A DNA stretch of 64,000 nucleotides. Source: Candidatus Latescibacterota bacterium. GTDB taxonomy: Bacteria > Latescibacterota > UBA2968 > UBA8231. Of this stretch, positions 6,321 through 12,777 are shown one piece after another; the stretch's first letter is position 1, and every line of letters begins with the position of its first letter. The stretch covers positions 3,454 through 67,453 of the forward strand of contig SLHA01000044.1 of NCBI GenBank assembly GCA_007136405.1, read 5' to 3'. The notes beneath the pieces are model-generated. The model did not search any database and was not told where the DNA came from. It was given only the letters and a program-made list of their open reading frames with translations. Position numbers and translations under genes: made by a program.

Positions 6321-7871
6321 CTATACGGTTTCGGTCTGCTGCTGACTGCGTTCGATGCGCATCTCCAGACGGTTGAGCGCGTCGACATAGGCTTTGGAGC
6401 TGGCCTCGATCACGTCTGTGGAGATTCCCCGTCCCTTGGAGTTCACCCCGTTCTTCGACACCCGGACCATCACTTCGCCCAGCGCCTGGCTGCCACTCGT
6501 CACAGCGCGAATGGAATACTCCTCCACCTTCACCCCGGCTTTGGCTGCCTGGTCTATGGCCATGTACGCGGCGTCCACCGGACCGTCGCCACAGGCGCTT
6601 TCCAGCACCTCCCGGCCGTCTACCCGCAGACGCACCGTGGCCGAAGGAACCGTGCCTGTGCCGCTGATGGCGTGCAGGTATTCGAGCACGTACTTCTGTG
6701 GCACCTGGCGGATCTCATCTCCGGCGATGGCCAGCAGGTCATCGTCGTAGACCTCCTTTTTCTTGTCGGCAATCTCCAGAAAACGTTCGTACGCCTTGTT
6801 TAGATCCGCCCCGGACAAGTGGTATCCCAGCTCCCCCAGACGGTGCTGCAGGGCATGGCGCCCCGAACGGGCAGTGAGAACGATCTCCGTGTCATCCAGG
6901 CCGACGTCCTCCGGCGCCATGATCTCGAACGTGTTGCGCGTCTTCAACACGCCATCCTGGTGAATGCCCGAACTGTGCGCGAAGGCGTTGCCACCGACGA
7001 TGGCTTTGTTGGGCGCTACGGCAATTCCCATCAACCGGCTTACCAGCCGGCTGGTGGCAATCAATTCCCGGGAGGTTACACCGACCTGGAGTCCGAAATA
7101 ATCCTGGCGTGTCTTGACCGCCATGACCACCTCCTCCAGAGAGGCATTGCCCGCCCGTTCTCCCAGGGCGTTGATCGTGCATTCCACCTGGCGCGCTCCG
7201 TGGCGCAGGGCAGCCAGAGAGTTGGCGGTGGCCATGCCCAGATCGTCATGACAATGGACGCTGATGACCGCCTGATGGATGTTGGGTACGCGCTCCAGCA
7301 GTGCGGCGATCATGGCACCGAACTGCTCCGGAACAGCGTAGCCGACGGTATCCGGTATGTTGATCGTGCTCGCTCCAGCGGCGATGGCCGCCTCCACCAC
7401 TTCGTAGAGGTAGGCCGGATCCGTGCGCGTGGCGTCCATGGGCGAAAACTCGACGTCCTCACAGAAACCGCGTGCCTGCTCCACGGCGGTCACCGCCATC
7501 CGCAGAACTTCGTCCGCGGTTTTTCTCAACTGGCCCCGCAGGTGAATTGCCGACGTGCCGACAAAAGTGTGAATGCGCGCGCGCGCCGCTCCGGCCAGCG
7601 CTGCAGCGGCCCGCTCCACATCCTGCGGTAAGGCCCGGGCCAGGCCGCAGATCGCCGGACCGTTCACCTCGTTGGCGATACGCCGCACGGCTTCGAAGTC
7701 CTCGTGGGAGGAAATGGGGAATCCGGCCTCGATGACATCCACCCGAAGGCGCGCCAGCTGCTGGGCGATCTCCAGTTTCTCACGCACTGTCAGCGAAGCC
7801 CCCGGGGTCTGCTCCGCATCGCGCAGTGTGGTGTCGAAGATGATCAGGCTTTTTGCGTCCATGTCGCTCAC
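6321..7871 (-). CDS. leuA: 2-isopropylmalate synthase
   Basis: [45 protein letters not shown]-terminal regulatory domain. Confidence 0.96.
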
Positions 7872-7880
7872 TCTCCCGTA

Positions 7881-7994
7881 TCACGTCTGCCGGATGTGGG
7901 AATGCGGGCAGGTGGAGCCGTCCGGCCAGCGACTCCCCTGCCTGTCAAGGTCGAGGTCACTGGTACCGGCATTGCTGTCGAGGCTGAGCTCCAT
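7881..7994 (-). CDS. Putative 37-aa small ORF in leuA leader (MELSLDSNAGTSDLDLDRQGSRWPDGSTCPHSHIRQT)
   Basis: AAGGAG SD 9 nt before ATG; stop lies 9 nt before the leuA GTG; below ORF-track length cutoff. Confidence 0.35.
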   Translation of the reverse strand: MELSLDSNAGTSDLDLDRQGSRWPDGSTCPHSHIRQT

Positions 7995-8083
7995 CCGCGA
8001 ATTCTCCTTTTTCAGGCTGCAGTGAAAGGCCCTTTGGGTATGATGCACGAACACACCTGGATCACTGCCTGAGGTATTCTGCC

Positions 8084-8152
8084 AAGGCTTCGTTTCGTTT
8101 TCGGTTGTCGGCGGAGGCGAAAGGAAGCGAAGCCTTACAGGTAAATAAGGCT
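8084..8152 (-). promoter_or_regulatory. Attenuator-like alternative hairpins at the end of the leader peptide
   Basis: AAGGCTTCG...CGAAGCCTT inverted repeat (8084-8092/8128-8136) extended by TTC/GAA and TTTCG/CGAAA; competing AGCCTTA/TAAGGCT stem (8146-8152/8131-8137). Confidence 0.6.
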
Positions 8153-8278
8153 GCTAATAAGAATCAGGCTAAGCAGTATGAACGGAACCGCAGGAAGGGA
8201 GACCGGAACCGTCACAGGATGACGGCGTGCGGCCGGGAAACACGGGGAATGGACGATGGTATATTCCTGAGCGTGCAT
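8135..8278 (-). CDS. Putative Leu/Ile-rich leader peptide, 47 aa (MHAQEYTIVHSPCFPAARRHPVTVPVSLPAVPFILLSLILISSLIYL)
   Basis: Between a near-consensus promoter and leuA; last 14 codons contain 6 Leu and 4 Ile. Confidence 0.7.
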   Translation of the reverse strand: MHAQEYTIVHSPCFPAARRHPVTVPVSLPAVPFILLSLILISSLIYL

Positions 8279-8325
8279 GGAGTCCTGCGTCTCCGGATTC
8301 GTCTAGCGAAGAGGTACAATTACGC

Positions 8326-8354
8326 AATATAGCCGGGATGCCCCGGCCTGTCAA
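8326..8354 (-). promoter_or_regulatory. Sigma70-type promoter of the leu/cimA operon
   Basis: TTGACA-17 nt-TATATT on minus strand. Confidence 0.8.
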
Positions 8355-8478
8355 CACGATGTGGACGGCGTACCCGTGTGCCGCAGGAACCGGCGGAGGC
8401 GATAGACACGGGCACGCCGCCTTGGATCAGTATGTCCGAAGCAATGTCCGCAGCGAGCGTGGGGCGGCGCCTAGCCGC

Positions 8479-9579
8479 TCAGTTGGCGCCGCGCCCCCCA
8501 ACCCCCTTGGTGTCCGCGTTGATGGCCCGGGCCTCCTCATGTGGCCGCAGATCGCGCGTGGCCCGGCCGGCGCGCCACATCTCCGAGTTGCGCATCTCCG
8601 CCAGTTCAGCCGCCAGCTTGTCCTGGTAGTCCGGTGCGCCGCAGACTTCGATGACGCGCTTTGTTTCGGCGCCGCTTTTGACCCGTTCGTACAGTTCCTC
8701 GAAGACCGGCAGCACCGCTTCCCTGAACCGCGGTTTCCAGTCCAGCGCACCACGCTGCGCCGTGGCCGAGCAGTTGGAGTACATCCAGTCCATACCATTC
8801 TCATCGACCAGGCGGATGAGGCTTTGCGTGAGTTCTTCCACGGTCTCGTTGAAGGCCTCGCTGGGGCTGTGACCGTTGGCTCGGAGTACCTGGTACTGGG
8901 CCTCCATAACGCCTGCCAGGGCGCCCATCAACACTCCCCGCTCGCCCGTCAGGTCGCTGTATACCTCGCCGGCGAATGTGGTCGGGAACAGGTAACCGGA
9001 GCCGACGGCGATGCCCAGCGCCAGCGCCCGTTCACGCGCCCGGCCGGTGTAGTCCTGTTCCACGGCGAAGCTCGAGTTGATGCCGGCACCGGAAAGGAAG
9101 TTGCGCCGCACGGACGTACCCGAGCCCTTTGGAGCCACCAGGATCACGTCCACATGGTCAGGCGGAATGACGCCGGTGAGATCCTTGTAAGTGATGGAGA
9201 ACCCGTGCGAGAAATACAGTGCATCCCCCGGATTCAGGCATTCCTTCAGCGACGGCCACAAAGCTTTCTGGGCCGCGTCCGAGACGAGGAACTGCACCAC
9301 GGTTCCCCTGCTGGCCGCCTCTTCCACCTCGAACAAGGTCTCGCCCGGCACCCAGCCATCACCCACAGCACGGTCCCAGTCGCTTTTGAAGCGGCTTGCC
9401 TGCCCGATGATGACATCCAGGCCGTTGTCCTGCATGTTGAGGGCCTGGGCCGGTCCCTGGACGCCGTAACCGATGACCGCAATGCGCTCCTTGGCAAGCA
9501 CATTGCGTGCCTTGTCCAGGGAGAACTCCTCGCGCGTGATCACTTCCTCCTGAACTCCTCCGAAATCGATGATCGCCAT
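8479..9579 (-). CDS. ilvC: Ketol-acid reductoisomerase
   Basis: IGYGVQGPAQALN, YFSHGF, VAPKGSG, SDLTGERGVLMG, EAFNETVEE. Confidence 0.96.
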   Translation of the reverse strand: MAIIDFGGVQEEVITREEFSLDKARNVLAKERIAVIGYGVQGPAQALNMQDNGLDVIIGQASRFKSDWDRAVGDGWVPGETLFEVEEAASRGTVVQFLVSDAAQKALWPSLKECLNPGDALYFSHGFSITYKDLTGVIPPDHVDVILVAPKGSGTSVRRNFLSGAGINSSFAVEQDYTGRARERALALGIAVGSGYLFPTTFAGEVYSDLTGERGVLMGALAGVMEAQYQVLRANGHSPSEAFNETVEELTQSLIRLVDENGMDWMYSNCSATAQRGALDWKPRFREAVLPVFEELYERVKSGAETKRVIEVCGAPDYQDKLAAELAEMRNSEMWRAGRATRDLRPHEEARAINADTKGVGGRGAN

Positions 9580-9798
9580 GTCTTGCTCCTTCTGACGGTA
9601 AACTGGCCGGGTGCGGTCCAGTGATGGTTCCTGGTTCGGTAAACCTCAAAACTTAACCTTCCGAGTCAAACCGGCAAGCGTCGACCCCAACCTGCCCCTC
9701 TGCACCTCACGTTGGATAGAGACCGGCAAGCCCTCTTGGCGCCACCTGTCCGGTAGCTTTACTTAGGCTTGCATAGCCTTGACCTGGTGAACACACCC

Positions 9799-10797
9799 AT
9801 GCCGGACCAATACACTGTGGAAGAAGTTGCGGACCATGCCGAATGGGACGCCTTCCTGGCCACCGCACGGGGCGGGAACCTGTTCTCCTCCAGCCGCTGG
9901 CTGGCTTGCGCCCAGGCCGCACTGCCCGGCAGGGTCGTGCTGCTGGGCTGCCGCCGCAACGGCCGCCTGGTGGCCGGGGTTTCCGGACTGGATCGACCCA
10001 GCCGTTTCGGGCGCCGCTTCGCAACCCCTGACCTGACCCCGCACGGCGGCATCCTGTGCGCCCCGGTGGCCGGTAAAGGTCCTGCCAGGGCCGAAGCGGA
10101 ATACCACCGCGCCGCCGGTCTGCTGGCCGACCACCTGACGCGGCACTACGGCCATGTGCATCTGACTCACACACCGGCCGTAGGCGATACCCGGCCCTTT
10201 CTGTGGGCTGGCTGGAACGTATACCCCCGGTACACCTACTGGCTGGATCGGCGCGATCTGAAGGCGCTGTGGGAGAGGGTGGAAAGACGCACCCGTACAG
10301 CCATCCGCAAAGCGGAACGCGCCGGCTATCACCTGCACACCGTTTCCGACCTCAGCCTGCTCGAGGCGCTGTACGAGCGCGTCTACCAGCGCCAGCAAGG
10401 CGGACCACCCGTCGGCGCCGCTACGCTGCGCCGCTTTGCCTCTCATGTGCTGGAAAACGGGCTGGGCGAAGCCTGGGCCACCTCTGCACCGGATGGCCGG
10501 CCGGCGGCCGTCGTGGTCTTCGTGAGGGAGGGCGACACCGTGTATGCCTGGGTGGCCGGAGCAGATCCGGAACAGGCCTCCAGCGGTGCCGCTCCCTATT
10601 TGTACTGGAGCTTTCTGCGGCAAACCGAATGCACTCGGTTCGATTTCGTCGGTGCCAACATGCCGGGTATCGCCATGTTCAAGCGCGGCTTCGGCGGGGA
10701 CCTGGTGCCGTATTATGCCACCGAAGGCTTCGGCTCGGTTTTTCTGCGGGCCGTCTGCGCGGTTCGCACCCTCGGACGCCAGCTGCGGGGCTGCTGA
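9799..10797 (+). CDS. GNAT-family (FemAB/Acetyltransf_6-like) acyltransferase
   Basis: R..IRKAERAG, FDFVGANMPGIAMFKRGFGG C-terminal signature. Confidence 0.75.
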   Translation: MPDQYTVEEVADHAEWDAFLATARGGNLFSSSRWLACAQAALPGRVVLLGCRRNGRLVAGVSGLDRPSRFGRRFATPDLTPHGGILCAPVAGKGPARAEAEYHRAAGLLADHLTRHYGHVHLTHTPAVGDTRPFLWAGWNVYPRYTYWLDRRDLKALWERVERRTRTAIRKAERAGYHLHTVSDLSLLEALYERVYQRQQGGPPVGAATLRRFASHVLENGLGEAWATSAPDGRPAAVVVFVREGDTVYAWVAGADPEQASSGAAPYLYWSFLRQTECTRFDFVGANMPGIAMFKRGFGGDLVPYYATEGFGSVFLRAVCAVRTLGRQLRGC

Positions 10798-10987
10798 CGC
10801 CCCTGGCGCCACGACTCCCTTGAGCTGCGCGGTGATGCGCGCCATATTCATGAGCCCGGGCAGTCCCGCGGAGCTGGCCGGCGAGTATGCGCCTCAGACG
10901 TCAGCCGTCATCTTGTTCAGGCCGGTCACACCCGCTGGTTCCGGCACCTATCCCGGCCGGAACGGAGACACCGAAGCAAGCCGTACG

Positions 10988-11968
10988 ATGCAGTCTACCC
11001 GAAAATGGAGGGATCTCGTGAAAGCAATGGAAGCCTTGGGGGGCAGGCGGCCGCTGGAGGCCGAACAGTTCGCCGAAAGAGCGTATGCCTATGCGCTCAA
11101 CCCCCTGCGCAACCCGCTCAAGGAAATCATGGACAAGTGCCCGTCCGTCGAAGAGACGCCGCCCGTACTCGGCATCTTCAACGATATTCCCTGGCATCGT
11201 TTCCGTGAGTCCGAGGCCCACGCCTGGGCCAAGGCGGGCTTTCTGTGGATCGTCAACGATGCCGAGCATTCCCAGTGGGAAGGCAACTATGGCCGTGAAC
11301 AGAACGCGGCCGAGGGACGCCTGGGCCTGCTGTCCGTGCAACGGCTGCACCGTGAGGCGCTGAGCGCGTATGGCGACGCGTACCAGTTGGGCGCGCGCGC
11401 CACGCTGCGTCCGTACGGCACCACATACGAGGACGCGGAACGCTATCTGCGCTCTGTCAACTTCCCGGTTCCCGGTCAGGCCACACCATATGATCGTGGT
11501 GGCTATCCGGTACGCACCGGTGACCGGACCATGATGTTCACTCCGGATGATCTGCGCGGGGCGGAAACAGAAGTCCAGGGCTGGGTCCAGTTCGAGACCA
11601 AGGAGTACATCGTGGACCGCAAGCTACGGGACCAGATCCTGGATCTCATGGTTCAGCAAGGGCGGAACAAGTCCTGTGGCTTCGTGGGACCATTCGACGC
11701 CATCTTGCGCGAGGGGGATCTGCCGGAAATCAATGATGCGGTCAACGAACTGTTCAGGGCAGCGGCCAAGGTGGGTATTCATACAGGGCGCGTCGTCGGC
11801 TCTGGCTCCATGGAGGATCCCAAGGACATAGAGGACGCCATGGTCGTCGCCATCGAGAACGGCGCCCGGCTCATCTCGGTTCATCCGCTGACCAGCGATA
11901 TGACCTATCGTGGCGCCGCCGCCATGGCGGAGCCGTTTTTCCGGGCCTGCGAACGCTGCGGGTTCTGA
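10988..11968 (+). CDS. HpcH/HpaI-like class II aldolase family protein
   Basis: GFLWIVNDAEH, VQFETKE, FVGPFD match the HpcH/GarL D.EH, QIET and FIGP.D motifs; TTGAGC-17-CATATT upstream; start trimmed. Confidence 0.65.
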   Translation: MQSTRKWRDLVKAMEALGGRRPLEAEQFAERAYAYALNPLRNPLKEIMDKCPSVEETPPVLGIFNDIPWHRFRESEAHAWAKAGFLWIVNDAEHSQWEGNYGREQNAAEGRLGLLSVQRLHREALSAYGDAYQLGARATLRPYGTTYEDAERYLRSVNFPVPGQATPYDRGGYPVRTGDRTMMFTPDDLRGAETEVQGWVQFETKEYIVDRKLRDQILDLMVQQGRNKSCGFVGPFDAILREGDLPEINDAVNELFRAAAKVGIHTGRVVGSGSMEDPKDIEDAMVVAIENGARLISVHPLTSDMTYRGAAAMAEPFFRACERCGF

Positions 11969-12037: not shown

Positions 12038-12586
12038 CTAGCGATCGGCCGGTCCCCGGTCGTCTGGATCCGGGAAGTCGACGCGCACACCATCTACGAT
12101 CCAGTAACCGCTGAGGCCATCCTCGCCCATTCCGGCCTCGCCTTCCACCGCACCGGAGTAGGCGCCGGAGATCAGCAGATCCACCGTATAAGAATAATGG
12201 GTGGCGTCCCGGAACAGGTATTCTGCCATACCGTTCAACCATATAAGACCGTCGTTGGAGTAGTTTTCGAAATACATGGTGTACAGAGTTCCCACCCGGG
12301 GAGGTTCTTCTTCCAGTACCTCCAGGATCACTGTGCCGCTGTGCTCGCCTGGATACGTACCCGCATCATCGGCCATCGCTTCAGACAGAATCGTGGTCAG
12401 CTCGAGATGAACCTGGTCGATGTTCTCCGGAGTGATCTCGTCGCCCGCGGGGGCGTCGTTTCCCGGGCCGATGGGACTGGTGTCGTTCGCCGGATCATCA
12501 TCATCGCCGCAGCCGGTGACCACAACGCAGCCGAGGCCCAACACAACAGACAGCATCAAGCGCCTGGTGGCGGTCAAGGTTATCAT
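12038..12586 (-). CDS. Hypothetical acidic lipoprotein
   Basis: GGAGGTG SD; signal peptide with VTG-C lipobox followed by GDDDDP. Confidence 0.75.
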   Translation of the reverse strand: MITLTATRRLMLSVVLGLGCVVVTGCGDDDDPANDTSPIGPGNDAPAGDEITPENIDQVHLELTTILSEAMADDAGTYPGEHSGTVILEVLEEEPPRVGTLYTMYFENYSNDGLIWLNGMAEYLFRDATHYSYTVDLLISGAYSGAVEGEAGMGEDGLSGYWIVDGVRVDFPDPDDRGPADR

Positions 12587-12777
12587 GACGGTACACCTCC
12601 TGTTGAAATCAGGCAGAGACAAAAGTGCGACCCCATGAGGGAACCTCGTGATGGCTGTATACCTGTCAACAACCGGTTCCGCCATCCAGAACAGCCGACA
12701 GCATAGGAGCATGTTCAAACGGGGCATCGCCTCCTGGCGGCTGTTTCCCATGCCGGATGAGTACCAGAACCCCTGCC

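Follow-up and report, generated by a model that had tools for sequence, protein, structure and literature searches.

How does an uncultured bacterium adjust an operon whose enzymes serve two amino acids at once? We addressed this question for the leuA operon of a Candidatus Latescibacterota bacterium, using a 64,000-nucleotide (nt) stretch of contig SLHA01000044.1 (assembly GCA_007136405.1; hereafter the window). Essentially nothing is known about how this uncultured lineage regulates its genes. A reading of the letters of the window alone (the original prediction) had proposed that an unannotated leader peptide, rich in leucine and isoleucine codons, precedes leuA and senses both amino acids. 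On balance, our analysis favours a two-tier leader of about 450 nt with its own promoter, in which a genus-specific Leu/Ile leader peptide sits on an older, phylum-wide leader made of an upstream open reading frame (uORF) and helices. This downstream structured leader had been overlooked, and it is probably the main control element.

We began with the layout of the locus. On the minus strand, ilvC (9579-8479) is followed by a GC-rich hairpin, the promoter, the open reading frame (ORF) that we call ORF1, a hairpin named P1, about 200 nt more of leader and then leuA-leuC-leuD-leuB-cimA. All of these genes scored above their NCBIfam cut-offs (leuA 755.6 bits, leuC 714.8, leuD 194.3, leuB 533.9, cimA 710.9 and ilvC 302.1), in agreement with the leuA-leuCDB-cimA operon originally proposed. 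Besides leucine synthesis, the leuCDB products also serve the citramalate route begun by CimA. The proposed promoter, TTGACA-17-TATATT, likewise stood up to scrutiny: it is the sole site with 11/12 matches among nine promoter-like sites in 60 kilobases (kb) of the window.

6321 to 7871, minus strand: leuA (2-isopropylmalate synthase), starting at GTG 7871 or, more likely, at ATG 7862, preceded by GGGAGAG.
8326 to 8354, minus strand: sigma-70-type promoter TTGACA-17-TATATT, 11/12 consensus matches, against a mean of 0.4 sites in shuffles.
8135 to 8278 (stop included), minus strand: ORF1, candidate Leu/Ile leader peptide of 47 codons with an ATG start, peptide MHAQEYTIVHSPCFPAARRHPVTVPVSLPAVPFILLSLILISSLIYL.
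8138 to 8179, minus strand: candidate control-codon run of ORF1, codons 34-47, ILLSLILISSLIYL, with six Leu (CTG three times, CTT three times) and four Ile (ATA once, ATT three times).

The codon counts bore out the description of ORF1 as a 47-codon frame that ends in a run of Leu and Ile codons, many of them AT-rich in a GC-rich genome. Seven of the ten Leu/Ile codons in the tail are rare ones (CTT three times, ATT three times and ATA). The genome has a GC content of 62.8%, and in its 1,830 long ORFs CTT accounts for 7.1% of the codons for Leu and ATC for 72.6% of those for Ile; in the ORF1 tail, the corresponding figures are three of six and none of four. Within ORF1, GC content falls to 38% in the last 45 nt, compared with 61% in the first 96 nt. 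We also screened 36,165 small ORFs of 20-80 codons in all six frames of the 4.29-megabase (Mb) assembly, and found that ten Leu plus Ile codons among the last 14 is the genome maximum; the runner-up value of seven is reached by 19 ORFs. Because the measure was picked after ORF1 had been seen, this rank is not a clean P-value. Even so, the genome's one ORF with so extreme a tail lies between genes, in the leader of the only operon for both Leu and Ile synthesis, and the absence of Val codons from the tail fits an operon serving Leu and Ile only.

The leader proved too diverged for BLAST, with a 501-nt query matching none of 40 relatives, so we used LeuA protein matches, present in 39 of 41 genomes, to collect the regions upstream of leuA at 30 loci. 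G001 (locus L004), which is the only further species in the genus, has identical promoter hexamers with the same 17-nt spacing and, at the identical offset from leuA (-407 to -263), an ORF of 47 codons whose peptide, MSSPLAGSPQSPCFGAPRKREQAGRPCPPELLRSRLSIALILGLIGP, aligns with ORF1 without gaps. Fourteen of the 47 residues are common to both, including L-S-x-x-L-I-x-x-L-I before the stop. Among the codons for the common tail residues L36, S37, L40, I41, L44 and I45, three of the six differ, each by a synonymous third-base change. A further sequence came from public runs as the contig of a 95%-identical strain, which is known as one contig and was read as a list of differences (94.7% identity over 901 nt, 48 differences and one gap). 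Here the promoter is without listed differences, and the ORF1 product (P0002) is 47 amino acids long and 89% identical. The ten listed differences in ORF1 comprise five synonymous changes (including Leu28 and Leu36) and five replacements (T7I, F14S, P25T, F33V and S43G), and the Leu/Ile residues of the tail are all kept.

Aligning the leuA upstream regions of relatives for Leu/Ile runs, as the original prediction had suggested, therefore found them in G001 and the 95% strain; in the loci of the 28 other relatives, we saw no Leu/Ile/Val-rich ORF within 450 nt 5' of leuA. Metagenomes added nothing closer: the P1 3' arm and the conserved block described below, combined into one search pattern, gave no matches, and a scan for LeuA reached a best identity of 73%, with no genus-level relatives. 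A looser screen for at least eight Leu plus Ile codons returned 45 matches in 229 loci. The relatives' ilv-leuA cases among these begin about 800-1,500 nt 5' of the leuA leader, within conserved sequence, and we set them aside as probable alternative frames of the neighbouring ilv genes. Judged by sequence comparison, the ORF1/P1 module is real but genus-restricted. The proposal of a dual Leu and Ile sensor is partly supported, in that the module recurs in the only other species of the genus, the tail Leu/Ile residues are kept in the 95% strain and Val is lacking, and narrowed in that ORF1 occurs in one genus only. The linkage of leuA to cimA is not peculiar to this genus, as it was present in 28 of the 31 relatives carrying both genes on one contig. 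Since it is common in the class, linkage itself does not explain why Ile codons were added by this genus alone.

Two further observations concern the leuA leaders of other genomes. The locus with the closest LeuA (L003 in genome G007; 80% identity) matches neither ORF1 nor R1, our model of the downstream leader. About 140 nt 5' of its leuA lies a degenerate Shine-Dalgarno (SD) and start segment (GAGGAGGGGGGTGATGCGAATGGATCC), with an open frame running into leuA; within this family branch, the older leader seems to be degenerating. Separately, a 24-codon ORF, MAKQTKNIKSISTALILLALLLR[L/P], is found at L068:1271-1345 and L136:1003-1077 (both plus strand), ending about 125-155 nt 5' of leuA. Its sources are a metagenome contig and a metagenome-assembled genome (MAG) labelled Sedimentisphaerales, and it looks like a separate, classical leucine leader peptide of another uncultured lineage.

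The ORF1 comparison also bears on a reading that the original prediction had set against its own, in which the ORF encodes a stable small hydrophobic protein, perhaps in the membrane, with a function of its own. The window C-terminus, VPFILLSLILISSLIYL, would suit a membrane helix, and gene-calling programs had picked out the ORF on 5 and 3 contigs. However, the counterpart in G001, ELLRSRLSIALILGLIGP, carries two Arg and has a Gly/Pro end, which disfavours a conserved membrane helix, and residue identity between the two species is only 30%. Pfam held no match for ORF1, and homologue searches returned nothing for ORF1 beyond the near-identical strain and nothing for the ORF1 of G001. We therefore consider a membrane protein very improbable.

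The end of ORF1 runs into predicted RNA structure. The original prediction had the stop overlapping a long hairpin, with a competing stem inside the control codons, and folding predicted both, as P1 and as a small hairpin.

8080 to 8139, minus strand: predicted hairpin P1, with core AAGGCUUCG (8136-8128) pairing with CGAAGCCUU (8092-8084), -18.6 kcal/mol, z -2.8.
8131 to 8152, minus strand: predicted small hairpin AGCCUUAU/GUAAGGCU, overlapping codons 43-47 and the stop of ORF1 and competing with the 5' arm of P1.
8050 to 8072, minus strand: block of 23 nt, CAGGCAGUGAUCCAGGUGUGUUC, conserved with respect to G001.

Only two of 200 shuffles were as good as P1 of the window, and the ORF1 stop UAA (8137-8135) lies within the base of the hairpin. 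The G001 counterpart is more pronounced (-29.3 kcal/mol, z -4.5, none of 200 shuffles as good) and again holds the stop, UAG, in its base. G001 is also capable of an analogous small stem, with a z of only -1.7. The conserved block resembles the SD and start segment of the downstream leader, matching its consensus at 15 of 23 positions by eye.

Three ideas on how P1 might be linked to the rest of the leader were rejected. A further predicted hairpin, P2 (CAGGCAGUGA...UCACUGCAGCCUG), has several uncompensated changes in its 3' arm in the 95% strain and is absent from G001. An anti-SD arrangement, in which CCUCC of the P1 loop pairs with the SD of the downstream uORF when a ribosome is at the stop (constrained folds), has no such sequence in G001. 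Finally, in a relay model the conserved block would switch partners between segment E3 and the ORF1 tail, but the duplex energies did not stand out from those of shuffles: in the window, 61/300 and 111/300 shuffles were as good, and in G001, 180/300 and 85/300.

The conservation of these structures raises the question of whether ORF1 is a sensor at all. Conserved RNA elements (P1, the small hairpin and the block) could instead form a leader that acts at the RNA level or is bound by a protein, with the Leu/Ile reading a by-product of a U-rich, low-GC stretch. P1 (8085-8139) and the block (8072-8050) are the best conserved parts, without listed differences in the 95% strain as against ten in ORF1, while 8003-8046 carries ten substitutions and an insertion. 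Furthermore, ORF1 shares only 14 of 47 residues with G001, its third-position GC is only about 57%, and the GCCUUAU within the conserved Leu-Ile codons doubles as an arm of the small hairpin. A protein regulator was also proposed for the actinobacterial LEU element by its authors, in the available text of their paper (PMC1262725). Set against this, the start, stop, length and frame of ORF1 are ungapped over 144 nt despite indels in the flanks and low identity, the stop is embedded in P1 in both species, and the conserved tail residues differ only synonymously. The corresponding G001 stretch is not AT-rich and still encodes L-S-I-A-L-I-L-G-L-I, and the tail is the extreme of 36,165 ORFs, placed exactly before the Leu/Ile operon. 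On this evidence we regard an RNA-only leader as rather unlikely, and continue with ORF1 as a candidate leader peptide.

If ORF1 is a leader peptide, the leader lacks the usual means of termination. As originally stated, no U-tract terminator follows: we found no terminator-like sites in 7600-8700. U-tract terminators are not enriched in this genome (13, 13 and 8 observed compared with 11.2, 9.9 and 10.0 in shuffles, over 60 kb of the window), so their absence before leuA is uninformative. Rho is encoded (TIGR00767, 671.3 bits against a cut-off of 509), and the ratio of C to G is 1.5-2.1 over ORF1 and P1 in the window, compared with 0.87 in leuA; much of this region lies inside P1. Given the presence of Rho, the C-rich leader and the lack of enrichment for U-tract terminators, either a Rho-type mechanism or termination at a hairpin without a U-tract is possible.

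The same features would suit an ORF1 that is translated and merely reports general translation capacity, through coupling or polarity such as shielding from Rho, its hydrophobic tail being incidental. Known uORF-dependent Rho attenuators (mgtA, corA, tnaC and speFL) answer varied signals via the efficiency of uORF translation, according to the available text of PMC12360218, and the leader here is C-rich and G-poor with Rho present. However, the run of rare Leu/Ile codons is an extreme outlier, the Leu-Ile pairs are the part of the peptide retained in G001, and the Val-free tail fits the operon products. We consider a general-capacity sensor improbable, though less so than a membrane protein.

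An RNA-library contig spans 7898-8303 unbroken and without differences, bridging ORF1, P1 and most of the downstream uORF. It is consistent with read-through of P1 in at least some molecules, as weak evidence, because such libraries can hold DNA. We gave no weight to a separate transcript start suggested by the gap in this library (no cover over 8304-8444, with contigs ending at 8303 and 8445), because its depth is 3-6 and DNA runs are equally fragmented.

Between P1 and leuA lies the leader that the original prediction had not described. It holds a second frame, uORF2, that is preceded by a strong SD and extends nearly to leuA.

7881 to 8011, minus strand: structured leuA leader, match to covariance model R1 (84.2 bits, E 3e-22).
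7881 to 7994, minus strand: uORF2, 37 codons, MELSLDSNAGTSDLDLDRQGSRWPDGSTCPHSHIRQT, with SD GGAG at 8007-8004.
7947 to 7949, minus strand: conserved CUU Leu codon of uORF2, 4-5 nt upstream of helix B; Leu in 45/48 sequences, CTT in 38.

The uORF2 stop falls 9 nt before GTG 7871 and 18 nt before the leuA ATG at 7862. Most relatives have a similar uORF, and in most genomes its ATG is preceded by AAGGAGGTGA. Counted from the conserved ATG, all 48 distinct sequences keep this frame open over 37 codons or more, whereas the other two frames are open to that length in 13/48 and 2/48. The uORF2 frame ends at or overlaps the leuA start, even as single-base indels shift its 3' half between frames across lineages. 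In addition to the CUU codon near helix B, codon 5 encodes Leu in 47/48 sequences, as CTT in 32; CUU, the main codon at both positions, is rare elsewhere. A Pfam match of uORF2 to Zn_ribbon_IS1595 was below cut-off (E 0.051) and was disregarded.

Within the class, R1, a covariance model built on helix B, matched 86 of 132 genomes, drawn from 22 of 31 genera, once per genome except in one genome with two matches. Among 151 genomes sampled across the phylum, 74 matched at E up to 1e-5, including five genomes of other classes. Wherever a strong match shares a contig with leuA (26/26), it lies 10-97 nt upstream on the same strand. Nothing below E 0.001 was found in 154 other loci, comprising 146 leuA loci of other lineages and eight ilv loci of the window genome. 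A search of Rfam over 7600-8700 returned nothing relevant at E up to 10, and the loci of 12 relatives gave no match at gathering score. Our literature search, which did not extend to subscription journals, found no description of such a leader for this lineage.

Some R1 matches depart from this pattern. The only genome with two (G073) has them at C1:22393-22522 and C1:5909332-5909461, near both ends of a 5.9-Mb contig, which may be an assembly overlap of a circular chromosome and not two copies. Weak matches at G028:C25:3265-3408 (32.5 bits) and G002:C167:7843-7932 (28.7 bits) lie on contigs other than that of leuA and could be chance or relocated remnants; in G028, leuA follows directly after ilvN, with no leader.

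The structure of this leader was examined in an initial alignment of 24 uORF2 regions and in a model-based alignment of 48 distinct rows fitted to helix B.

7932 to 7942, minus strand: helix B 5' arm, GGCAGGGGAGU, forming a 12-base-pair (bp) helix with 7918-7907.
7907 to 7918, minus strand: helix B 3' arm, GCUCCACCUGCC, with a second complementary stretch at 7998-7988, in the start region of uORF2 (helix A).
7921 to 7926, minus strand: segment E3a (GCCGGA) in the helix B loop, which pairs with E4 (helix C) or with the 5' part of the helix B 5' arm (helix D).
7889 to 7894, minus strand: segment E4 (UCCGGC), the helix C 3' arm, a few bases upstream of the leuA SD.

Helix B is supported throughout, with 92.9% of cells paired and 34 doubly changed cells in the 24-region alignment, and 95.7% of cells paired and compensatory changes in six of 12 pairs in the 48-row alignment; its covariation score was reached by none of 500 shuffles. 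The 6-bp helix C is paired in 94.4% of cells (24 regions) and 97.2% (48 rows), and it covaries, changing from G:C to A:U in ten rows. Helix D changes from C:G to U:A in the same ten rows, so that all three columns change in step. Since the covariation of C and D comes largely from one genus, it possibly reflects one evolutionary event. Because the 5' arm of helix C lies inside the helix B loop, B and C cross and, if formed simultaneously, would make a pseudoknot. Helix D excludes both B and C, and the element therefore has at least two states. For the helix B 3' arm, an E2:E3 duplex has an energy of -20.8 kcal/mol, with 11 of 300 shuffles as good. The complementarity of helix A is conserved, and we retain helix A as a possibility. 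The original prediction had suggested a search for covarying stems in related leaders. P1 shows no clean compensatory change, and the covarying stems that we found, helices B, C and D, belong instead to the overlooked downstream leader.

Combining these features, we infer how the two tiers could work. In the first, ORF1 would be translated, and its run of rare Leu and Ile codons would slow ribosomes when charged tRNA-Leu or tRNA-Ile is scarce. The stop lies in the P1 base, and pairing between the last codons and the P1 5' arm is possible. We therefore propose that P1 formation depends on where the leading ribosome stands: a ribosome stalled at codons 34-41 would leave P1 free, while one at codons 44-47 or at the stop would cover its 5' arm. 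Candidate outputs of P1 are Rho loading on the C-rich leader, termination at a hairpin without a U-tract, or an effect on the folding of the downstream leader. In the second tier, a strongly initiated uORF2 would thread through alternative helices (the B and C pseudoknot or D, with or without A) and end at the leuA start. The conserved CUU codon lies about 5 nt 5' of helix B, so that a ribosome waiting on it would occlude the 5' arm common to B and D and prevent helix B from forming. This tier would most likely tune leuA translation to leucine supply. In evolutionary terms, the promoter, ORF1 and P1 would have been added upstream of the older tier in one genus, such that both end products of the operon are reported.

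Several results weigh against this two-tier scheme. In the window, ORF1 has only a middling SD (GGAG at 12 nt or AGGA at 4 nt 5' of the ATG), and a non-coding cause could in principle underlie the low GC of its tail. With only three sequences available, from two species and a near-identical strain, selection on ORF1 codons is not statistically demonstrable. In the same genome, no Leu/Ile/Val-rich leader precedes ilvB, the three ilvD paralogues or ilvE. In addition to the lack of clean compensatory change in P1, folds, consensus structures and duplex tests revealed no conserved 3:4 partner, terminator or SD-sequestering structure tied to P1, the C/G bias is weaker in G001 (1.2-1.7), and folds of the whole leader were no stabler than shuffles (z -1.18 and -1.19). 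For the second tier, helix A is paired in 81-86% of cells, with no covariation beyond shuffles. The uORF2 of the 95% strain carries seven replacements and one synonymous change among the listed differences, including Leu5 to Phe, and none of its differences falls in helices B or C. This indicates that the identity of the peptide is not under selection, that uORF2 is real as an open frame and not as a peptide, and that one of the 'conserved' Leu codons is dispensable. Finally, the direction of regulation is not derivable from these features; termination-reinitiation coupling would, if anything, lower leuA translation upon stalling.

A more specific version of the two-tier leader goes further. 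In it, 8011-7881 would be a new class of leucine-responsive translational switch, in which a near-perfect SD, a ribosome parked at CUU and the choice of B and C versus D and A act together, and a transcription-level Leu and Ile sensor (ORF1 and P1) would be stacked in front of it in one genus. The result would be a tandem two-sensor leader that adds isoleucine control via citramalate. We put this forward tentatively, as possible but doubtful.

The analysis yields a single-copy, leuA-specific element that is absent from Rfam, with clear covariation and an unusual architecture, in which a uORF is threaded through a pseudoknot or switch. Covariance model R1 can be used to annotate leuA leaders in metagenomes. 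The locus would also offer a natural example of how a lineage gains a second sensor, made of Leu and Ile codons, on top of a leader already in place. Should the ORF1 module prove to operate with no intrinsic terminator, it would extend the few known uORF-controlled Rho or translational attenuators to a biosynthetic operon.

Upstream of the promoter, the locus holds a further structure.

8364 to 8421, minus strand: GC-rich hairpin with 16-nt arms GGCGGCGUGCCCGUGU / ACACGGGUACGCCGUC, between the ilvC stop (8479) and the promoter, its arms paired in the alignment.

This hairpin, which has no U-tract, is a candidate terminator or insulator of ilvC. A different GC hairpin, read by eye, stands immediately 5' of the TTGACA in G001. 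The ilvC product carries a C-terminal extension (...RPHEEARAINADTKGVGGRGAN; window 8479-8560, minus strand) past the ...GMMSWLDKK end of most relatives, and this extension is common to genus g7 (L003: ...RPREAARQVDGSTRGIGGRGTN). Neither ilvB nor ilvN adjoins ilvC in this genome, and ilvB is on another contig. The long ORFs 5' of ilvC (9763-10851, 10901-11350 and 12038-12751, minus strand) have no NCBIfam or Pfam matches and are possibly wrong frames or unknown genes. DNA near-identical to window 7700-8600 occurs in public runs from soda lake, salt lake, alkali sediment and lake water metagenomes of several studies, and two of these runs may have supplied the assembly. The closest relatives of the lineage that bear a name are MAGs with a Latescibacterota or Gemmatimonadota label.

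Classical ribosome-mediated attenuators of branched-chain amino acid synthesis are found in the enterobacterial leu, ilvGMEDA and ilvBN leaders. Like them, ORF1 lies between a promoter and the first biosynthetic gene and has a run of end-product codons enriched in rare ones. Its run and stop likewise overlap alternative hairpins, with a 1:2-like stem (8152-8131) and a 2:3-like stem (P1) sharing a strand. Unlike these attenuators, the ORF1/P1 module has no U-tract terminator and no 3:4 hairpin was identified, the codons are Leu and Ile without Val (which fits a leuA-cimA operon), the ORF is long at 47 codons, and a second, independent leader follows. The two leaders also differ from known Leu leaders, the T-box and other leaders or riboswitches in having no Rfam family match.

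The design of ORF1/P1 appears to resemble uORF-dependent Rho attenuation, as in mgtA, corA and tnaC, more closely than the classical type. As the available text of PMC12360218 describes for mgtA/mgtL, corA, tnaC and speFL, the position of a ribosome on a uORF sets the fold or exposure of the RNA downstream and no intrinsic terminator is needed; the leader here would behave alike, being C-rich and G-poor, with a stop that adjoins the regulated RNA as in tnaC and speFL. The signal for ORF1 would differ, being charged tRNA-Leu or tRNA-Ile and not Mg2+, proline, tryptophan or ornithine.

For the 8011-7881 element, the closest known analogue in concept appears to be the actinobacterial LEU element of Seliverstov et al. 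(2005). The available text of that study (PMC1262725), which also reports candidate ilvB leader peptides in Actinobacteria, describes the LEU element as lying before leuA in Actinobacteria and combining a uORF with leucine codons, a pseudoknot and an alternative fold. A base stem between the Leu codon run and the leuA SD box belongs to the LEU element; no stem joining Leu codons with the leuA SD stood out by eye in the 8011-7881 alignments, for which no formal test was made. R1 gave no matches upstream of leuA in eight Actinobacteria-labelled loci, from lineages in which the presence of the LEU element is not known. Compared by description only, and as far as the available text goes, both elements stand immediately before leuA, with a uORF that has Leu codons, two crossing helices and an alternative fold, and both lack a terminator and are suspected of translational control. 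Unlike the LEU element as described there, the 8011-7881 element belongs to a different phylum, has two fixed Leu codons, mostly CUU, in place of a run, and has a uORF that spans the whole structure up to the leuA start.

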